Source: Buchnera aphidicola (Mindarus japonicus) | GTDB taxonomy: Bacteria > Pseudomonadota > Gammaproteobacteria > Enterobacterales > Enterobacteriaceae | Direction: 5' to 3' | DNA: 32,000 bases | Assembly (NCBI RefSeq): GCF_039393905.1 | Contig: NZ_CP135030.1 | Span: 1-32,000, forward strand | In this document: piece by piece, positions 1-32,000 of the stretch | How the letters are laid out: the number at the start of each line of letters is the position of its first letter | How positions within the stretch are numbered: the stretch's first letter is position 1 | Made by a program: the position numbers and the translations under genes | The notes under the pieces: generated by a model | Told to the model about the DNA's origin: nothing | What the model saw: only the letters and a program-made list of their open reading frames with translations | The model's database searches: none

Positions 1-1872
1 TTGTTGTTGAAAACTTATGAAGTTATTGTTATTGGAGGTGGCCATTCGGGAGTTGAAGCATCTGCAGCGGCTGCTAGAATGGGTAAAAAAACTTTATTAA
101 TTACACAAAATAAAAATTCTATTGGATTTTTATCCTGTAACCCAGCTATTGGGGGTATTGGGAAAGGGCACTTAGTTAAAGAAATAGATGCATTAGGAGG
201 ATTGATAGCAAAAATTACAGATAAATCTGGAATACAATTTAGAATTCTTAATTCAAGAAAAGGTCCAGCAGTTCGAGCTACAAGAGCTCAAGTAGATCGA
301 AATTTATATCAATTAGAAACTAAAAAATTTTTGCAAAATCAAAAAAATTTATTTATTATAGAAGGTGAAGTAACTAATATTTTAATTAAAAACAAAACTG
401 CTGTTGGAGTTAATGTAAATACTGAAAATATTTTTTATGGAAAATCTATTGTTTTAACTACTGGAACATTTTTAGGGGGAAAAATTTTTATCGGAAAAAA
501 ATGTTCCGAAGGTGGTCGGATAAATTCTTTTTCTTCTAAATTTTTAAGTGATAAATTAAAAGAATTTTCTTGTTTTTATGGAAGATTAAAAACTGGAACA
601 CCTCCTCGTTTAGATGCAAAATCAATAAATTTTTCAAATTTATTAGTTCAGAAAGGGGATAAACCAGTACCTTTTTTTTCTTTTATTCATAAAAATATTA
701 AACATCCTCAGCAGATATCTTGTCATATTACACATACAAATGAAAAAACACATTCGATAATTCGATCAAATATTTCAGAAAGCCCAATGTATAATGGATC
801 GATTAAAAGTATAGGACCACAATATTGTCCATCTATTGAAGATAAAGTAGTTAGATTTTCTCATAGAACTAAGCATCAAATATTTTTAGAACCTGAGGAT
901 TTATCAAAATCTACTATTTATCCTAATGGAATTTCTACCAGCTTTCCTTTATCCATTCAGAAAAAAATTATTTCTTCAATATGCGGATTAGAAAATGCAA
1001 AGATTTTGGTTCCCGGATATGCAGTTGAATATGATTTTTTTGATCCTAGAAATTTAAAACTTACTTTAGAAAGTAAAGTAGTTCATGGTTTATTCTTTGC
1101 AGGGCAAATAAATGGAACAACTGGATATGAAGAAGCAGCTGCTCAAGGATTATTAGCAGGATTAAATGCAGCATTATATTCTTCTGATTTAAAAGGTTGG
1201 TTTCCTAGAAGAGATCAAGCATATTTAGGGGTGTTAGTAGATGATCTTTGTACTAAAGGAGTTGTAGAACCTTATAGAATGTTTACATCTCGTGCAGAGT
1301 ATAGATTACTGTTAAGAGAAGATAATGCTGATGTAAGATTAACAAAAATCGGAAAAAAATTAGGATTAATCGATTCTTTTCGCTGGAAAAAATATAATGA
1401 AAAGTTATTGTTAATTGATTCTGAAAAAAAACGTTTAAAAAAAATTATCGTTAATTTAGACTCTAATGAGTCTTCTAATTTAGAAATGATTTTAAATAAA
1501 AAGTTAAGAAAAAATAGCACAGGTATAGATTTATTGAAAAGACAAGAGATAAGTTATGAGTTATTAACTTCTTTAAAATGCTTTTCTCCAGGTATAAAAA
1601 ACAAGCAAGCTTCAGAACAAATCGAAATTCAACTTAAATATGAAGGTTATATTAAACGTCAAACAGAAGAGATTAATAATCAATTGTATTATGAAACCAT
1701 GTCTTTACCATTAAATTTAAATTACAAAAATATTTGTAGTCTTTCAAATGAAGTAATTGAAAAGTTAAATAGGTATAAACCAATGACGCTTGGTCAAGCA
1801 TCTAGAATTTCCGGAATAACACCTGCAGCAATATCTATTTTATTGATATATCTAAAAAAGAATAATATATAA
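1..1872 (+). CDS. mnmG: tRNA uridine 5-carboxymethylaminomethyl modification enzyme MnmG (GidA)
   Basis: 623-aa ORF. It has the N-terminal FAD-binding motif [13 protein letters not shown] and the [12 protein letters not shown] motif, and is colinear with E. coli MnmG. It begins with TTG at base 1, so the true start may lie at or beyond the window edge. Confidence 0.95.
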
Positions 1873-2013
1873 AAAAAATAAAAAAAAAGTTTTATAAAAT
1901 AATTTTTTTTTAAATTTTTTTATAATTTTTAATATAAATATATAAGAAATGTGTATTTTATACAGATATAAATACAAATTTTATTTTTCTGAAATATATT
2001 TCATAAACATTAA

Positions 2014-2862
<849 letters not shown>

Positions 2863-2876
2863 AATTTTTACTTTAA

Positions 2877-3149
<273 letters not shown>

Positions 3150-3732: not shown

Positions 3733-4266
3733 ATGATTAATGCGGATACAATTTCTCGTCCGTATGCAAAAGCTATTTTTAAACTTTCTATAGAAGAAAA
3801 TTGTATTAATTATTGGGAAAAAAAATTATTTTTTTTTTCCAAAATATCAGAATCAAAAGAAATTAAAAAAATTCTTTTAAGTAATTATTCTTATAAATAT
3901 ATAAATAAAGTGTTTATTACTGCTTATGGAAAAAAATTAAAAAAAAATGAAGAAAAATTAATTTATTTGTTAGCGTTTAATAAACGTTTGATTTATTTAA
4001 AAAATATTTTTTCTTTCTTTTTAAAATATAAAAATAAATACGAAAAAAAGCTTTATGTTAGCATTATTTCTTCAAAAAAATTATCCAACTCTGATATTAG
4101 TCAGATTTCAAATATTTTAAGAATAAAATTTTCTAAAAATATTATTATAAATACGGTTATAAATATGTCCATTATAGGAGGTTTAATAATTAAAATTAAC
4201 GACATCATTATTGATGGTTCTATCTGCACTCATTTAAAACAATTAAAAAGCATTTTACGTGCTTAA
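3733..4266 (+). CDS. atpH: F0F1 ATP synthase subunit delta
   Basis: 177 aa lying between atpF and atpA. The N-terminal TISRPYAKAIF matches the conserved delta-subunit start (E. coli TVARPYAKAAF). Confidence 0.85.
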   Translation: MINADTISRPYAKAIFKLSIEENCINYWEKKLFFFSKISESKEIKKILLSNYSYKYINKVFITAYGKKLKKNEEKLIYLLAFNKRLIYLKNIFSFFLKYKNKYEKKLYVSIISSKKLSNSDISQISNILRIKFSKNIIINTVINMSIIGGLIIKINDIIIDGSICTHLKQLKSILRA

Positions 4267-4287
4267 TATTTGAGAGAAAAATAGTAT

Positions 4288-5835
4288 ATGGAATTAAATT
4301 CTACTGAAATTAGCGAATTAATTAAAACAAGAATTGCTAATTTTAAAATTTGCAATATTACTGAAAATGAAGGAACGATAATTACGGTAAGCGATGGAAT
4401 AATTCAAATTTACGGACTTTCTAATGTTATGCAAGGAGAAATGATAAAAATATCTAATCAACAATATGCTATAGCTTTAAATTTAGAAAGAGACGTCGTA
4501 GGTGCTGTCGTATTAGGAGATTATTTAGAAATTACTGAAGGAATGAAAGTTAGAAGTATAGGAAAATCTTTAGAAGTTCCTGTAGGAAAAAATTTTTTAG
4601 GAAGAGTAGTTAACGCATTAGGAGATCCAATAGATGGAAAAGGAAAAATTATTTCTTCTTCTTTTTTACCTGTAGAAACTAATGCACCTGGAGTGATTGA
4701 TAGGGAATTTGTTAATGAACCCATACAGACAGGATATAAGGCAATAGATACTATGGTTCCTATTGGACGTGGACAAAGGGAATTAATTATTGGAGATAGA
4801 CAAACTGGAAAAACAACATTAGCAATAGATACAATTATTAATCAAAAAAACTCAGGAATTAAATGTATTTATGTAGCTATTGGGCAAAAATTTTCAACAA
4901 TTGTTAATGTTGTAAAAAAATTAGAAGAACAAGATGCATTACAAAATACTATCGTTATAGTAGCTTCTGCATCAGAAGCTCCTGCTTTGCAATATTTGGC
5001 TCCTTATTCAGGATGTGCAATGGGTGAATATTTCAGAAATAAAGGAGAAGATGCATTAATTGTTTATGATGATCTTTCGAAACATGCAGTTGCTTACCGA
5101 CAAATTTCTTTATTGTTAAAACGTCCTCCTGGTAGGGAAGCATTTCCAGGAGATATATTTTATTTGCATTCAAGATTATTAGAAAGATCGGCCCGTGTTA
5201 ACGTTAATTTTATAAAGAAAAAAACCTTAGGAAAGGTTAAAAATAAAACTGGTTCTTTAACAGCATTGCCTATTATTGAAACACAAGCGGGAGATGTTTC
5301 TTCATTTGTTCCTACAAATGTAATATCAATTACTGATGGACAAATTTTCTTGGAAACTAATTTATTTAATAATGGAATTAGACCTGCTGTTGATCCAGGA
5401 ATATCTGTTTCCAGAGTAGGTGGTTCTGCTCAAACAAAAATTATAAAAAAACTATCTTCTGGAATACGAACTGCATTGGCTCAGTACAGAGAATTATCTG
5501 CTTTTTCTCAGTTTTCATCAGATTTAGATGAAATTACTCGCAGTCAATTGTTATATGGACAAAAATTAACAGAATTATTAAAACAAAAACAAAATAAACC
5601 TATTTCTATTGCTGAACAAGCTTTAATTATTTTTTCAGCGGAATTTCATTATTTAGATGATGTTCCTTTAGAAAAGATTTCTTCTTTTGAAGAATCGTTA
5701 TTAGATTATTTTAATCGTTTTCATTCTAAACTAATAATTAAAATTAATAAAACCGGTGTTTATGATGAAAAAATAAAAAGTACATTTATAGATATAATTC
5801 AAAACTATAAATGTAAAAGAACTGATTTATTTTAA
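4288..5835 (+). CDS. atpA: F0F1 ATP synthase subunit alpha
   Basis: 515 aa with Walker A GDRQTGKT and strong colinear similarity to AtpA. Confidence 0.97.
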
Positions 5836-18421: not shown

Positions 18422-20080
<1,659 letters not shown>

Positions 20081-20103
20081 TTTTTTTTAATAATTAATTC
20101 TTT

Positions 20104-20138
20104 TCTCCCTAAATATTATATATTTAGGGAGAGTTTTT
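20104..20138 (+). terminator. Intrinsic terminator after groEL
   Basis: TCTCCCTAAATA (20104-20115) pairs with TATTTAGGGAGA (20121-20132) across a TTATA loop, followed by GTTTTTTT. The T-run abuts the epmB stop codon on the opposite strand. Confidence 0.8.
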
Positions 20139-21143
20139 TTAATAATTTATATCAATTGGAATTTTACTATATTTATTAGGTTGTTCTAAAACTAATTTTG
20201 GGACTAAAAACCCAGAAATTTTTTTCATTAAGTTTTTTATAATAAATTTTGCTTTTGATGTAGTAACATAAAAGTGATTAGTTCCATAAACAGGATCTAG
20301 CATGTGTAAATAATAAGGAATGATATTAGCATCAAATAATTTATTGCTTAATTTTAATAGGGAGGTTGTATTATCATTTATCCCTCGAAGTAGAACCGTT
20401 TGATTTAGCAAGAAAACCCCTGTTTTTTTTAATAACTTCATGCTTTCTTTAACTTCATTATCTATTTCTTGAGCATGATTTATATGTGTTACAAATAAAA
20501 CTTTAATTTTTATTGATTGTAAAATTGAACATAGTCTATTTGTAATTCTAGAAGGTATTACTATTGGTAATCTAGTATGAATTCTAATTCTTTTGATATG
20601 TTTTATTTTTTGAATTTTTTTTAATAACCAATTTATTTCTTCATCTTTAGCCATTAAAGGATCTCCACCAGATAAAATTATTTCTTTTAAATTTTTATTT
20701 TTTTTTATGTATTCTAAAGAAAGAGTCCAATTTTTTTTATTTCCTGAATTACTTTCATACGGAAAAAATTTTCTAAAACAATATCTACAATTAATTGCAC
20801 AATTAGTTTTTACTAATAATAAAACTCGATCAGTGTATTTTTTAATTAAACCAGGAACTATAATATTTTTTTTTTCTTCTATAGGATCTTTATTGAATCC
20901 TGGAGAACTAAAAATTTCTTGTTTTTTAATTAAAACTTGTAATAATAAAGGATCTTTTAAATCGTTTTTTTTCATTCTTTTAGCGAATTTTATGGGGACT
21001 CGTAATGGAAATAATTTCCATATTTTATTTTCTTTTTGAAAATCAGTATGATTTTTGATATTTAATAAATTAAATAATTTTTTTGAAGAAGTAATGACTT
21101 GAGAAAGTTCATTAATCCATAATTCTTTTTTTATATTCTTCAT
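20139..21143 (-). CDS. epmB: EF-P beta-lysylation protein EpmB (YjeK, lysine 2,3-aminomutase family)
   Basis: 334 aa with the radical-SAM cluster motif CAINCRYCFRK (CxxxCxxC) and SGGDPL. It is divergent from efp, as in E. coli. Confidence 0.9.
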   Translation of the reverse strand: MKNIKKELWINELSQVITSSKKLFNLLNIKNHTDFQKENKIWKLFPLRVPIKFAKRMKKNDLKDPLLLQVLIKKQEIFSSPGFNKDPIEEKKNIIVPGLIKKYTDRVLLLVKTNCAINCRYCFRKFFPYESNSGNKKNWTLSLEYIKKNKNLKEIILSGGDPLMAKDEEINWLLKKIQKIKHIKRIRIHTRLPIVIPSRITNRLCSILQSIKIKVLFVTHINHAQEIDNEVKESMKLLKKTGVFLLNQTVLLRGINDNTTSLLKLSNKLFDANIIPYYLHMLDPVYGTNHFYVTTSKAKFIIKNLMKKISGFLVPKLVLEQPNKYSKIPIDINY

Positions 21144-25532: not shown

Positions 25533-26333
25533 ATGGAATATATAGTTGTTTCAGATTTAGATGGTACGTTATTGAACAATAATTTTCAACTTTCTAACTT
25601 TACTAAGTTGGTAATAAGAAAATTAAGTAAAATGGGTATACGTTTTATAATAGCTACCGGGAGGCACTATATTGATGTATTGAAGTTTCAAAAAGAATTG
25701 GGAATTAATTTTTTTTCAATTACTTCTAATGGTTCAAAAATTTATGATTTTTCGGGTAATTTAATTTTTAGTTGTGATTTATCATCAGATGTTTGCATAA
25801 GGTTACAAAAAATAAGAATTTTTGATAAAGATATCTATACTCATGTGTATAAAAATAATCAATGGTATGTTAATGGAATACTTATCAAGAATAATCAAGT
25901 TAATATAAATAAAATTTCTACTTTTTTAGATATTAAAAATAGAAAATTTTTTTTTTCTAAAGTAAGTAAAATATATTTTACTTCTATAGATATAAAAAAA
26001 ATAAAAATTTTAGAAAAAGAAATTTTAAATAATTTTAAAAATGAAGTAAGTATAACTTACTCTTCTCCTCTTTGCTTAGAAATTATGCCTAATAAAATAT
26101 CTAAAGGTTTTGCTTTAAAATTTTTATCAAATTATTTAAAATTTCGCTTAAAAAAATGTATTTCTTTTGGAAATTCTTTAAATGATCAAGAAATGTTAGA
26201 TATTTCTGGAAAAGCTTATATAATGAATAATGCAGATGAAGATTTAAAAAAATCTTTACCTCATTTAAAATGTGTTAAAAACAATTTTGATGATGGAGTG
26301 GCTAATTTTTTAGTTAATTTTTTTAAGATTTAA
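25533..26333 (+). CDS. yigL: Cof-type HAD-IIB phosphatase (YigL-like)
   Basis: 266 aa from the ATG at 25533. It has DLDGTLL (motif I), ATGRH, ITSNG and FGNSLNDQEML (motif IV), and is colinear with E. coli YigL. Its position upstream of metE matches the E. coli order yigL-yigM-metR-metE. Confidence 0.85.
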   Translation: MEYIVVSDLDGTLLNNNFQLSNFTKLVIRKLSKMGIRFIIATGRHYIDVLKFQKELGINFFSITSNGSKIYDFSGNLIFSCDLSSDVCIRLQKIRIFDKDIYTHVYKNNQWYVNGILIKNNQVNINKISTFLDIKNRKFFFSKVSKIYFTSIDIKKIKILEKEILNNFKNEVSITYSSPLCLEIMPNKISKGFALKFLSNYLKFRLKKCISFGNSLNDQEMLDISGKAYIMNNADEDLKKSLPHLKCVKNNFDDGVANFLVNFFKI

Positions 26334-26473
26334 TCTTAAATTATCTAATAAAATTTCAAATAACCCATTTTAAATTAATATGTATATAAATATTTTATTT
26401 TAAATATATTCATATATAAATAAAATTTTTATAGAAGTAATGTTTTTTTAAAATTTTTAATAAGGTTTACTTT

Positions 26474-28744
26474 ATGACAGTATTTAATCATATACTTGGA
26501 TTTCCAAGAATTGGATCAAAGAGAGAGTTAAAAAAAGCTCAAGAAGAATATTGGTCTGGTAAGATAACAAAAAAAGAATTATTATTTGTAGGAAAAAAGT
26601 TACGAAAAGAAAATTGGAAACAGCAAAAAAAATATGGAATTGATTTTTTACCTGTAGGAGATTTTTCTTGGTATGATCATGTGTTGACAACAAGCATGTT
26701 TTTGGGAAATATACCTGATCGACATAAAAATTCCGATTCTTCTATAGATATAGATACAATGTTTCGTATTGCTCGTGGTTCAGCTCCAAAAGGAAAGCCT
26801 GTTTCTGCCTCTGAAATGACAAAATGGTTTAATACTAATTATCATTATATAGTTCCTGAATTTCATAAAAATCAAGAATTTTCTTATTCTTGGAATCAAT
26901 TGTTAGAAGAAGTTGATGAGGCTCTATCATTAGGATATAAAATTAAACCAATTTTATTAGGACCTTTAACATATTTATGGTTAGGGAAAATTAAAGGAGA
27001 TTATTTTAATCGAATTGACTTATTACATAAAATTTTACCAATTTATAAACATATTTTAAAAGAATTATCTGATAGAGGAATTTCTTGGGTTCAGATAGAT
27101 GAGCCAATTTTAGGATTAGAATTATCTAACAAATGGAAGGAAGGTTTTAAATTTGCTTATCGATTTTTAGGTCATCATAAAAATTTGTTGTTAACAACTT
27201 ATTTTGAAGATGTTAGTCTTAATTTAGATTTAATAGTACAATTACCTATTGCTGGATTACACATCGATTTGTTTTCTGGTAGTTATGATTTGTTGGCTTT
27301 AAATAAAAAGTTACCTGAAGATTGGCTATTATCTTTAGGGGTGGTAAATGGAAGAAATATTTGGAAAACAGATTTACTTTACTGGTTTGAAAAAATTATT
27401 CAAATAGTAAGTAAAAGAAAAAATATTTGGATTGGCTCGTCTTGTTCATTATTGCACTCTCCTATTGATTTAAACCTTGAAAAAAATTTAAGTCAAGAAA
27501 TAAAAAATTGGTTTGCTTTTGCTTTGCAAAAATGTTTTGAATTGTCTATGCTTACAAAATCTTTAAATAATAAAGATATAACTGGAATTAAAGAATGGAG
27601 TGAATTACTTCATACTAGAAATATTTCTAAATTTGTTCATAATAAAGATGTTCAACATAGGTTAGAAAACCTTAATTCTCAAAGTTTAGATAGAAAAAGT
27701 GCTTATGCAGCTCGTTATTTAGAACAAAAAAAAGCTTTAAAACTACCAATCTTTCCTACTACAACTATAGGTTCTTTTCCTCAGACAGAAGATATTAGAA
27801 AAGTAAGAAGAGATTTTAAAAATGGATTGGTTACAATTGAAGATTATAATGAACATATTAAAAATAATATAAAAAAAGTAATTTTAGAACAAGAATCATT
27901 AGGAATTGATGTATTAGTTCATGGAGAAGTTGAACGAAATGATATGGTGGAATATTTTGGGGAAAATTTAAACGGATTTGCTTTTACTGATTATGGTTGG
28001 GTGCAAAGTTATGGTTCTCGTTGTGTTAAACCTCCTATAATTATAGGAGATATCTATCGAACCAAACCCATTACTGTTAAATGGTCTAAATATGCTCAAT
28101 CTTTAACTAATAAACTAGTTAAAGGAATGTTAACAGGTCCAATAACTATTTTATGTTGGTCTTTTCCTAGAGAAGATGTTTCAAAAGAAACAATAGCTAA
28201 ACAAATTGCTTTAGCTTTACAAGATGAAGTGTTAGATCTAGAATCAGCGGGTATTAAAATTATTCAAATAGATGAACCGGCATTAAGGGAAGGTTTACCG
28301 TTAAGAAAACAAGATTGGAAGAAATATTTATCTTGGGCTGTCAAAGCTTTTAAATTAACATGTTTTGGTGTAAAGAATACTACTCAAATTCATACTCATA
28401 TGTGTTATTGTGAATTTGAAGATATTATGGATGCTATTGTACATTTAGATGCTGATGTTATTACGATTGAAACATCTCGTTCCGATATGCAATTATTAGA
28501 ATTTTTTAAAAATTTTAAGTATCCGAATGGTATTGGTCCTGGGGTATATGATATTCATTCACCTAATGTACCAAAAATTGAAGATATAAAAAATTTATTA
28601 ACAAAAGCATTAACTTATATTTCAAAAGAAAATTTATGGGTTAATCCTGATTGTGGTTTAAAAACAAGAACTTGGATTGAAACGAGAAAGGCTTTAAAGA
28701 ACATGGTACTTGCTGCTGAAAATATGCGGTTGGATACATTGTAA
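26474..28744 (+). CDS. metE: Cobalamin-independent methionine synthase MetE
   Basis: 756 aa with N-terminal [20 protein letters not shown] and the C-terminal Zn-site motifs HTHMCYCEF and NPDCGLKTR. It is full length relative to E. coli MetE. The last 88 nt, stop codon included, lie inside the palindrome at 28657-28914. Confidence 0.97.
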
Positions 28745-28764
28745 TTTTGTATAGAAAAATGGTC

Positions 28765-28806
28765 AAAAAGAAGGCGCTTTTTTTATAAAAAAAGCGCCTT
28801 CTTTTT
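28765..28806. terminator. Bidirectional intrinsic terminator core at the palindrome centre (metE/purH convergent junction)
   Basis: AAAAAGAAGGCGC (28765-28777) pairs with GCGCCTTCTTTTT (28794-28806). The only GC-rich stem segment is flanked by an A-tract and a T-tract, the standard architecture of a two-way rho-independent terminator. Confidence 0.65.
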
Positions 28807-28826
28807 GACCATTTTTCTATACAAAA

Positions 28827-28914
28827 TTACAATGTATCCAACCGCATATTTTCAGCAGCAAGTACCATGTTCTTTAAAGCCTTTCTCGTTTCAATCCAAG
28901 TTCTTGTTTTTAAA
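28827..28914 (-). other. Inverted duplicate of the metE 3' end (last 29 codons plus stop), forming the distal part of the right palindrome arm
   Basis: The minus strand of 28827-28914 is identical to 28657-28744. It has no start codon or upstream ORF, so it is not an independent gene. Confidence 0.9.
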
Positions 28915-28943
28915 GGTAAAAGTATATTAATTTTAGTTATTTT

Positions 28944-30515
28944 TTAGTGTTTAAAATGACGAAAATTAGTAAAAATCATGGTCATGTGACACTTATCAGC
29001 TTCTTTTTTTACCTCTTGATCTCTAATAGACCCACCTGGTTGTATAACAGTTTTTATATTCAATTTATTCGCTTCTTTAATTGAATCTGAAAAAGGTAAA
29101 AATGCATCAGATGCCATAATTATATTATTATATTTTTTTTTGTTTTGATTTAATAATTTCATATTAGCAACTTTAACAGAACATAATCTACTTGTTTGTC
29201 CTGCTCCTATACCTAAAGTAACTCTATTTTTTACATAAACAATGCCATTTGATTTAATAAATTTGACTATTTTCCAAGCAAAAATAGCATCTTTTTTTTC
29301 TTCTTCGGTAGGAATTCTTTTTGTAACAATTTTCCATTTTTTAACATCAATTGATAATTGATCTTTTTCTTGAATTAAAAGTCCATTTGTTACAGACTTA
29401 AAATCTAAAAAATTTTTTTTATTTGTGAAATAACCAACAGAAAGTAAGCGTATATTTGGTTTTTTTTTAAAAATTTTTAAAGCAGATGAAGTAATATCTG
29501 GAAAAATAATGACTTCAACGAATTGTTTGTTTAATATTTCTAAAGCAGTAACGGAATCTAAAATTTTATTAAAAGCAATAATTCCTCCAAATGCAGAAGA
29601 TGAATCACTTTCATAAGCTAATTTATAAGCTTGGTGTAAATTTTCTGCACTGGCTACACCACAAGGATTTCCATGTTTAATTATTACACAAGTAGGTTCA
29701 ATAAATTCCTTTACACATTCTAAAGCTATATCAGCATCATAAATATTATTTAATGATAACTTCTTCCCTTGAATTTTTTCTACATTTCCAATAGATCCAG
29801 AAAAAACTTTTTTTTCTGTATAAAAAGCTCCCTTTTGATGTTTATTTTCTCCATAAGAAAGATTTTTTTTCTTAAAAAATTGCATATTTAATATTGATGG
29901 AAAAGTTTCTTCTTTTTTTTTCAGTGAAGTAACTTTTTTTTTAAAAAAAGTAAATATTTTTTTTTCATACATAGCGGTGTATTCAAAAGCTTTCATAGCT
30001 AACCGCATTCTTTCATTTATAGATAATGTATTATTTTCCAAATGTTTATCAAATAGTAAATAATCTTTATTATCTACAAGAATTGAAATATGTTCATAAT
30101 TTTTAGCAGCAGCACGAACTATAGCTGGACCTCCTATATCAATATATTTTAGAATTTCTTTCATTTTTTCATTTTTCCAACTTTCTTTTTCATCAAAAGA
30201 ATAAAAGTTGGCTATTACTAGATCAAAAGGAATTATAGAATATTTTTTAATAATGTGATCATCTATTCCTTTTCTATATAAAACACCAGCATAAATTTGA
30301 TAATGTAAAGTTTTTAATCGACCATCCATAATTTCTGGAAAATTAATATAATCAGAAATGTTTGTAACATTTATTTTATTTTTTCTTAATATATTCGCAG
30401 TGCCTTCAGTAGAAAATAATTTAATGTTTTTTTTTATTAATTTTTTTGAAAATTCAACAATTCCTGATTTATCAAATACACTAATTAAGGCAGTTTTAAT
30501 ATTTTTTGATTTCAT
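28944..30515 (-). CDS. purH: Bifunctional AICAR transformylase / IMP cyclohydrolase PurH
   Basis: 523 aa with the N-terminal MGS-like ALISVFDKSGIVEF...STEGTA. Colinear with E. coli PurH. Confidence 0.95.
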   Translation of the reverse strand: MKSKNIKTALISVFDKSGIVEFSKKLIKKNIKLFSTEGTANILRKNKINVTNISDYINFPEIMDGRLKTLHYQIYAGVLYRKGIDDHIIKKYSIIPFDLVIANFYSFDEKESWKNEKMKEILKYIDIGGPAIVRAAAKNYEHISILVDNKDYLLFDKHLENNTLSINERMRLAMKAFEYTAMYEKKIFTFFKKKVTSLKKKEETFPSILNMQFFKKKNLSYGENKHQKGAFYTEKKVFSGSIGNVEKIQGKKLSLNNIYDADIALECVKEFIEPTCVIIKHGNPCGVASAENLHQAYKLAYESDSSSAFGGIIAFNKILDSVTALEILNKQFVEVIIFPDITSSALKIFKKKPNIRLLSVGYFTNKKNFLDFKSVTNGLLIQEKDQLSIDVKKWKIVTKRIPTEEEKKDAIFAWKIVKFIKSNGIVYVKNRVTLGIGAGQTSRLCSVKVANMKLLNQNKKKYNNIIMASDAFLPFSDSIKEANKLNIKTVIQPGGSIRDQEVKKEADKCHMTMIFTNFRHFKH

Positions 30516-31408: not shown

Positions 31409-32000
31409 ATGAACATTATTAAAAATAAAAAACGATATCTTGCTAGAAAAGAAGCAAAAAAATTTATTGATACAATTAAAAGTACTACTTTTCCAAATTC
31501 TGAACGTGTTTATATTTCTGATAATAAAAAAAAAATATCTGTTCCGATGAAAAAAATTAATTTAACTATTAATTCTGATCATAATAATGTGTGTAAAACT
31601 GATAAAGTAAAACCAAAAAAAGATTTTATCTTAACTTACGATACATCAGGTCCTTACGGTGATAGTACAAAAAAAATTGATATATATCAGGGAATAAAAA
31701 AAACAAGAGAAGAATGGATTAATCTTAGAAATGATAGTATTTCATATACTAAAAAAATTACAAGTGATTGTTTAAATGAAAAAATAAAAATTTCTTCTAC
31801 TTTAAATTCTAATACTTTTAGGAAAGCAAAACCAAAGTTTGGTTTAACTCAAATGTATTATGCTAAAAGAGGAATCATTACTTCAGAAATGGAATTTGTC
31901 GCTGTTCGAGAAAATTTAAATCAGCAAAAAATAATTGATAAACGAATGAATCAACAGCATTCTGGAAACAATTTTAAAGATCAACAACATATAAAAATTA
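31409..32000 (+). CDS. thiC: Phosphomethylpyrimidine synthase ThiC (5' part, runs off the window end)
   Basis: Open frame from the ATG at 31409 to the window end, absent from the ORF track because it has no stop. The translation contains [27 protein letters not shown] and [24 protein letters not shown], colinear with E. coli ThiC ([51 protein letters not shown]). Confidence 0.88.
   Translation, partial: [197 protein letters not shown]

Follow-up and report, generated by a model that had tools for sequence, protein, structure and literature searches.

A long perfect palindrome over the 3′ end of metE, shared by the Buchnera of Mindarus aphids, with arms that evolve in concert

Here, we describe a 258-bp perfect palindrome that covers the 3′ end of metE, the gene for cobalamin-independent methionine synthase, in Buchnera aphidicola of the aphid Mindarus japonicus. 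The palindrome lies within the first 32,000 nucleotides (nt) of contig NZ_CP135030.1 (assembly GCF_039393905.1), the stretch of DNA that was analysed as a whole and is referred to below as the window. Judging from the genomes compared, the palindrome is real, old and shared with related species, and its two arms change together. The reading that we favour, with a probability of roughly 0.68, is that an old inverted duplication, seeded at a bidirectional terminator, has been kept perfect by concerted evolution, probably through RecA-independent template switching.

A perfect palindrome whose arms change together

Both a repeat search and direct reading of the sequence showed that the two 129-nt arms are 100% complementary with 0 nt between them, so that positions 28657-28914 form one uninterrupted palindrome (Table 1). 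An exact inverted repeat of 129 nt is beyond chance. The coding portion of the left arm starts with the last base of a Gly codon and continues through 28 sense codons to the stop codon of metE. The initial annotation of the window, made from the letters alone, had described exactly this arrangement, namely spacer-less reverse-complement arms, a left arm composed of the 3′ end of an intact metE with its stop codon and 41 nt of downstream sequence, and a right arm representing an inverted copy in the gap between metE and purH, and all of these points were borne out. No second long perfect hairpin was found in the 32 kb. The runner-up perfect stem is 15 nt long and made up of A and T alone, and all canonical 31-mers that occur more than once in the window belong to the palindrome itself. 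Folding predicts an extremely stable structure, with free energies of -219.6 kcal/mol as RNA (z = -29.8 versus shuffles) and -154.4 kcal/mol as DNA (z = -32 versus shuffles). A mobile element or a repetitive extragenic palindrome (REP), such as a miniature inverted-repeat transposable element or insertion sequence ends, was considered and rejected, as the arm is the 3′ end of metE itself and the window holds no other repeated 31-mer. A search of the palindrome against Rfam returned sub-gathering matches only, to microRNA-precursor and small nucleolar RNA models, which represent generic hairpin noise.

The closest relatives of the MetE of the window were traced to two genomes, OZ060398.1 (L062; 89% identity), which stems from a different project, and CP135024 (L063; 84% identity), from Mindarus keteleerifoliae strain 18; strain 19 of this species carries the same MetE protein as strain 18. 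Both genomes contain the palindrome. Its arms measure 124 nt around a 3-nt loop (TGT) in L062 and 146 nt around a 1-nt loop (T) in L063, and are 100% complementary in each case. The metE-purH spacer is 198 nt long in L062 and 239 nt in L063, compared with 199 nt in the window, and all three palindromes begin at the same place in metE (...GGTTTAAAAACAAGAACTTGG), within the same codon; the outer boundary in L062 is 3 nt shorter. The initial annotation had named a metE-purH spacer about 130 bp shorter as the finding that would speak against a genuine long palindrome. No such spacer is present in the sister strains, and short spacers occur only in distant Buchnera.

Between these three genomes, metE differs at 11-15% of its nucleotides, and their arms are set apart by 13, 21 and 15 substitutions together with insertions and deletions (indels), the counts for the left arm being equal to those for the right. 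In the three-way alignment, 29 of the 146 stem pairs have changed on both sides. Furthermore, the insertions found in L063, one of 6 nt in the coding part and one of 13 nt in the non-coding part, are mirrored exactly on both arms. Neither wobble pairs nor mismatches occur within any genome of the Mindarus clade and, taken over five genomes including the second clade treated below, the 496 stem pairs contain 0 mismatches and 0 G-U/G-T pairs. In the three-way comparison, which was counted in Python, a few odd cells reflect alignment-column effects at the tip and the outer edge. Asymmetry was found only at the centre (TGT in L062, T in L063, and TATT or TGTT in the second clade) and at the 3-nt outer edge in L062. 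By the rule of three (0/496), the divergence between arms would lie below about 0.6%, and the 2*mu/c approximation then suggests a per-site rate of conversion at least about 300 times that of mutation.

The part of the arm derived from coding sequence retains 73-87% identity between species, while the adjacent unique 29-40 nt retain only 48-60%. Since the MetE tail is conserved in the sister genomes, with the first 20 codons of the arm almost invariant at the protein level, the left arm is under protein-level constraint. The low identity of the unique spacer indicates that an unconstrained right arm would by now hold tens of mismatches. Arms that are perfect in each genome and diverged between species therefore point to an old palindrome with arms evolving in concert. 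This decides between two options that the initial annotation had left side by side: a recent event is contradicted by arms that differ between species (13-21 substitutions plus indels) yet are 100% identical per genome, while active homogenisation is selected by the mirrored substitutions and indels. A further idea, that the palindromic part of metE evolves faster through mutations imported from the free arm, was discarded, because the C-terminal tail evolves equally fast in Buchnera lacking the palindrome.

The same annotation had also raised the possibility of an assembly or library artefact. In this view, a chimera formed by fold-back, an overlooked hairpin adapter or a mistake of the assembler would have produced the palindrome in a genome that in truth has only a short terminator. 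A single 150-nt read cannot span the 258 bp, and the published assembly merged the output of MEGAHIT, NOVOPlasty, Geneious and Pilon. However, the window genome (Mindarus japonicus strain 20, CP135030) was obtained from polymerase chain reaction libraries sequenced as Illumina NovaSeq 2x150 reads (PMC11193766), so that chimeras from multiple displacement amplification and missed long-read adapters do not apply, neither that amplification nor long reads having been used. The Logan k=31 assembly of run SRR29340236, which may consist of the very reads that underlie the published assembly and hence does not count as an independent sample, yields contigs 100% identical to the window. Its purH contig (L061) ends at window position 28885, having entered the right arm by exactly 30 nt, or k-1. 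A compacted graph has to stop there when the flanks of purH and of metE lead into one and the same arm sequence. The de Bruijn graph built from the raw reads thus branches exactly at the arm boundary, which places the inverted repeat in the reads and not in the work of the assembler. In addition, four genomes, drawn from three lineages and two projects, show this structure with the same boundary and each in its own sequence, the palindrome of the second clade appears in three assemblies (the ENA and NCBI records of one contig and a JGI metagenome contig), and random chimeras would neither share boundaries nor be the sole path to purH. With three further genomes from two projects agreeing, an artefact is extremely unlikely.

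The left junction of the palindrome is not covered by Logan contigs, as the contig carrying ftsY-rpoH-yigL (L064) stops at 26326, near the 3′ end of yigL and before metE. No 31-mer at this point is repeated in the window, and the stop may reflect variation in the length of a homopolymer or a repeat at another place in the sample. An exact-protein look-up of the MetE of the window gave no match, the gene probably being cut inside the arm in k=31 assemblies, and a scan of genome contigs with MetE returned distant bacteria only (Chryseobacterium, Acidobacteriaceae and others) and no Buchnera.

Second clade, decayed lineage and ancestral state

A palindrome at the same gene was also found in a second Buchnera clade, in which metE is followed by a co-oriented trkH. 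In L068 (OZ060372.1, positions 4747-4856), a perfect palindrome with 53-nt arms and a TATT loop lies over the metE stop codon and covers the last 10 codons of the gene. L073, a metagenome-assembled genome (MAG) whose ENA and NCBI records are one MAG contig, carries 44-nt perfect arms around a TGTT loop at positions 4256-4347. About 8 differences separate the arms of L073 from those of L068, and all of them are mirrored. The sequence of L077, the JGI metagenome contig Ga0247676_1002605, is identical to that of L073; it was the only true relative recovered when metagenomes were scanned with the core of the second clade, the other matches being three unrelated ordinary terminators. The same scan with the Mindarus core found no match.

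One member of this second clade differs from the others. In L072 (Logan SRR23525764, positions 4245-4350), identity between the two arms is only 67%, each arm matches that of L068 at about 76%, and the G+C core carries one mismatch (GGTGCT versus AGCGCC), while metE is intact. From its sequence, L072 looks like a palindrome in which homogenisation has stopped and both arms are drifting, and it provides a natural control for the perfect cases. In a rough neighbour-joining tree of MetE, palindrome-free lineages lie between the two palindrome clades. This topology would be compatible with two origins of the palindrome, or with one origin followed by several losses.

The long palindrome is missing from four more distant Buchnera (L066, L067, L069 and L071). 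The metE-purH arrangement is kept in three of them, with a spacer of 105 nt in L067 (OZ060370), 86 nt in L069 and 81 nt in L071 (OZ060378). The terminator hairpin of metE, determined in L067 and L066, is imperfect, measuring 22 nt with 82% complementarity in the former and 16 nt with 94% in the latter. By this comparison, the distant Buchnera display the ancestral state, and the extra 100 nt or so in the Mindarus clade is the inverted copy.

The upstream side of metE varies as well. In the Mindarus clade and in the clade of L068, metE is preceded by yigL without an adjacent metR (window 26334-26473), while L065 and L067 possess a divergent metR of the LysR type beside metE. Since L069 and L071 also lack metR and have no palindrome, there is no simple correlation between the two features.

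The palindrome centre and neighbouring features

In the window, which has a G+C content of 24%, the gene order is ftsY-rpoH-yigL-metE, followed by the convergent purH and by hupA. The MetE protein is 100% identical to an NCBI Buchnera protein (P0001). Beyond hupA and the end of the window at 32000, the Logan contig L061 (positions 1-3107) carries a thiamine-synthesis cluster with thiC, a TMP-TENI/thiE-like gene and a ThiF-family gene.

Table 1. Features of the metE-purH region in the window
Feature	Position	Strand	Description
metE, cobalamin-independent methionine synthase, intact, 756 amino acids	26474..28744	+	NCBIfam NF003556/TIGR01371 equivalogs, E=0, full length; open to stop
Left arm	28657..28785	+	88 nt of metE coding sequence including stop (28657-28744) and 41 nt of 3′ non-coding sequence (28745-28785)
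Bidirectional intrinsic-terminator-like hairpin at the centre of symmetry	28762..28809		GAAGGCGC-T7-AT-A7-GCGCCTTC; A5 tract before and T5 after, on either strand
Right arm	28786..28914	+	Reverse complement of the left arm without a mismatch, within the metE-purH spacer; non-coding; mirrors each change of the coding arm
Unique 29-nt spacer between right arm and purH stop codon	28915..28943		Fast-diverging, 48-60% identity between sister genomes
purH, intact, convergent with metE	28944..30515	-	NCBIfam NF002049/TIGR00355 above cut-off; exact protein in Logan contig L061

The centre of the palindrome has the appearance of a bidirectional intrinsic terminator, as a G+C-rich stem-loop followed by a T tract is found on both strands between the convergent metE and purH. 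Scanning both strands for the terminator pattern gave 6 sites, versus 0.3 expected in shuffles. The core GGTCAAAAAGAAGGCGC(T6-7) is invariant across the three genomes of the Mindarus clade, in which central asymmetry or difference is confined to 0-3 nt. The arms are able to form hairpins with a very short loop, of 0, 3 and 1 nt in the three Mindarus-clade genomes and of 4 nt in the second clade. A transcript of purH would cross the right arm before reaching the central terminator. These features suggest that the centre may serve as a terminator for both metE and purH. The extra stem length is probably a neutral by-product.

Three further observations were made on the palindrome and on a repeat elsewhere in the window. 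First, a promoter-like sequence, TTGACC-17 nt-TACAAT (10/12 matches), occurs mirrored in the arms at 28805-28833 (+) and 28766-28738 (-), directed outward from the centre, and transcripts from these sites would be antisense to purH and metE. A functional role for these sites was rejected, because the total site count is not above that of shuffles and the spacing is not conserved in L063. Second, the reading frame after the purH stop codon stays open on the minus strand (28826-28946) and leads into the inverted MetE-tail copy without a change of frame. This potential read-through extension of PurH is open in the window only, with a stop at the boundary in L062, where it is in frame, and a shifted frame in L063, so it is considered a coincidence. 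Third, an imperfect inverted repeat with 38-nt arms, 71% complementarity, a 3-nt spacer and the core TAAATAT/ATATTTAGGGAGA lies just after groEL (20079-20157), and this may be another over-long terminator quasipalindrome.

Origin, maintenance and meaning

In the favoured reading, replication in the ancestor of the Mindarus-aphid Buchnera would have folded back at the metE-purH terminator hairpin. About 130 nt of the strand already made, covering the 3′ untranslated region and the last 29 metE codons, would then have been copied in inverted form before synthesis returned to the template. The initial annotation had likewise proposed template switching at a pre-existing terminator hairpin. The short ancestral hairpin and the terminator-like centre agree with this proposal, and we infer the event itself from the structure that it would have left behind.

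After its formation, any substitution or indel arising in one arm would be either removed or copied to the other arm. The likely engine is RecA-independent, hairpin-templated template switching, known as quasipalindrome correction, whereby a nascent strand folds onto the complementary arm that it contains and continues its synthesis with this arm as the template. The hairpin tip (0-3 nt) and the outermost bases alone would escape such correction. Selection on MetE would decide which variants survive, so that the non-coding arm would follow the coding one. Copying at the DNA level is preferred over site-by-site selection on an RNA stem because the 496 pairs contain 0 mismatches or wobbles, the indels are mirrored, and asymmetry appears only at the tip (0-4 nt) and the outer edge.

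The persistence of such a structure would be permitted by the lack of the SbcCD hairpin nuclease and of a RecA-dependent cycle of breakage and repair. SbcCD kills E. coli carrying a 460-bp perfect palindrome even in a rec+ background, and kills rec- cells carrying a 246-bp interrupted one (PMC4245961), and for this reason the absence of SbcCD is the expected condition for tolerance. Buchnera has been reported to lack RecA, RuvAB and most recombination proteins (PMC1193525). The repair-gene list in supplement 3 of a 90-genome Buchnera dataset that includes these strains names recBCD, sbcB, mutS, mutL, mutH and others, with recA, sbcC, sbcD and xseA not among the genes listed there (PMC11193766). 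The Buchnera of Mindarus japonicus would thus be expected to lack recA and sbcCD.

Several points weigh against this reading. The same pattern would also result from mismatch repair of a heteroduplex formed in a hairpin or cruciform, or from recombination by another route that is independent of RecA, and we infer template switching itself. Template-switch tracts seen in experiments are short, and correction across 130-146 nt is an extrapolation from them. Exonuclease I is known to limit template-switch mutation in E. coli. Its gene sbcB is present in most Buchnera (PMC11193766), and the presumed absence of recA and sbcCD in the Mindarus japonicus symbiont is likewise read from the dataset-wide list. 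Finally, palindromes occur at metE in two clades with no other in the 32-kb window, which could point to selection instead of neutrality; the sequence inspected amounts to about 6% of the window genome and 5-8 kb of each other genome.

Selection also features in a more far-reaching reading, which adds it to conversion. Here, intra-palindrome conversion in the reportedly RecA-less Buchnera would be very efficient, at least about 300 times the rate of point mutation per site, and would keep more than 250 bp perfect in the long term, while the palindrome itself would be non-neutral and would have been fixed twice independently because the long double-stranded RNA (dsRNA) formed by read-through provides fail-safe termination or regulates metE. 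We consider this combination unlikely. Slightly less probable still is that the palindrome is a co-opted functional element. Read-through from either convergent gene would produce a perfect 129-bp dsRNA that is cut by RNase III, and the element could provide fail-safe termination, form an antisense barrier or regulate metE, so that selection helps to keep it. The convergent genes with a terminator at the centre, the recurrence at metE in two clades and the lack of any other long palindrome in 32 kb are in line with such a role. However, the palindrome is missing from most Buchnera with the same metE-purH arrangement and has been lost in L072, and the co-oriented trkH downstream in the second clade makes an antisense barrier unneeded there.

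Recurrent re-creation, in which each lineage has recently rebuilt the whole right arm by a fresh fold-back from the central hairpin to a preferred return site, appears improbable. The outer boundary does fall within the run TTTAAAAA, a possible micro-homology return point, and metE has acquired palindromes at least twice. Nevertheless, independent recent events would be needed in every sampled lineage, all ending at the same base, and the boundary of L062, 3 nt shorter, fits the erosion of one ancestral structure. Mechanistically, moreover, such re-creation is just the long-tract extreme of the template-switch process.

It is very unlikely that the long hairpin is functional and that selection on its stem, as RNA or as DNA, purged mismatched variants by itself, through compensatory substitutions of the ordinary kind and in the absence of any homogenising mechanism. 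In favour of this view, two clades with at least five lineages between them have retained the structure, in every case at metE, its centre is terminator-like and the predicted stem is extremely stable. An RNA stem, however, tolerates wobbles and a few mismatches, of which the five genomes show none, and the 6-nt and 13-nt indels are mirrored exactly. Compensation at 29 positions without any intermediate being caught is implausible given the weak selection and small populations of Buchnera, and L072 has let the stem decay with metE still intact.

The process favoured here has known relatives at both ends of the size scale. In E. coli, template switching renders imperfect inverted repeats "perfect or more perfect", with one arm copied from the other (PMC7202029); it has also been put forward as the reason why short perfect inverted repeats are conserved in proteobacteria (PMC5941160) and has been linked to both the creation and the maintenance of hairpins (PMC8794818). 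Quasipalindrome correction, as formulated in the Ripley model and observed at thyA and in the lacZ quasipalindrome reporters of E. coli, resembles the metE palindrome in that one arm is perfected from the other. In those cases, however, the arms are about 5-20 bp long and the events single, whereas the arms at metE reach 124-146 bp, include 88 nt of essential coding sequence and stay perfect through 11-15% divergence, and the process here is deduced from sequence. At the other end, the palindromes of the primate Y chromosome and the plastid inverted repeat likewise have arms that are identical within a genome and diverged between species, with the non-functional copy inheriting constraint. These repeats extend over kilobases to megabases, contain spacers and depend on homologous recombination (PMC5941160), unlike the 258-bp, spacer-less metE palindrome in a lineage reported to lack RecA. 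With arms of 124-146 nt, a spacer of 0-3 nt and a lineage reported without RecA and RuvAB, the metE palindrome falls outside the kilobase-scale, recombination-driven class.

Two further systems share parts of the structure. The palindromes engineered into the E. coli chromosome in the laboratory of D. Leach (246 bp interrupted, 460 bp perfect) are similar in size and perfection, reside in a related gammaproteobacterium and form hairpins during replication. They are, however, cleaved by SbcCD, the perfect one being lethal, while the metE palindrome is natural and stably inherited across species. Ordinary bidirectional intrinsic terminators between convergent genes have in common with the metE-purH centre a G+C-rich stem with A/T tracts, and other Buchnera carry a hairpin of 16-22 bp after metE. 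The metE stem nevertheless runs at least 100 bp further into coding sequence, far past what a terminator requires. In the literature searched, no description was found of a spacer-less palindrome of 258-293 bp that overlaps an essential gene and keeps its perfection from species to species in a bacterium without RecA. Processes of this kind are known from short repeats and from very large recombining palindromes, and the metE case differs in combining 258-293 bp, no spacer and a lineage reported to lack RecA.

Long perfect palindromes have been regarded as incompatible with enterobacterial chromosomes. Here, a natural one of 258-293 bp overlaps an essential gene, metE, one of the key provisioning genes of the symbiont, and is inherited across aphid-symbiont species. 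As a natural example of palindrome arms that evolve in concert without classical recombination machinery, it is unusually clean, and it shows a non-coding copy carried along by selection on the coding copy. The template-switch model for short inverted repeats would thereby be extended by an order of magnitude in length. In practical terms, palindromes of this type interrupt k-mer assemblies at positions that can be predicted, and they ought not to be written off as artefacts. With the decayed arms of L072 as a natural control, the sequence is also experimentally tractable for the study of RecA-independent correction.

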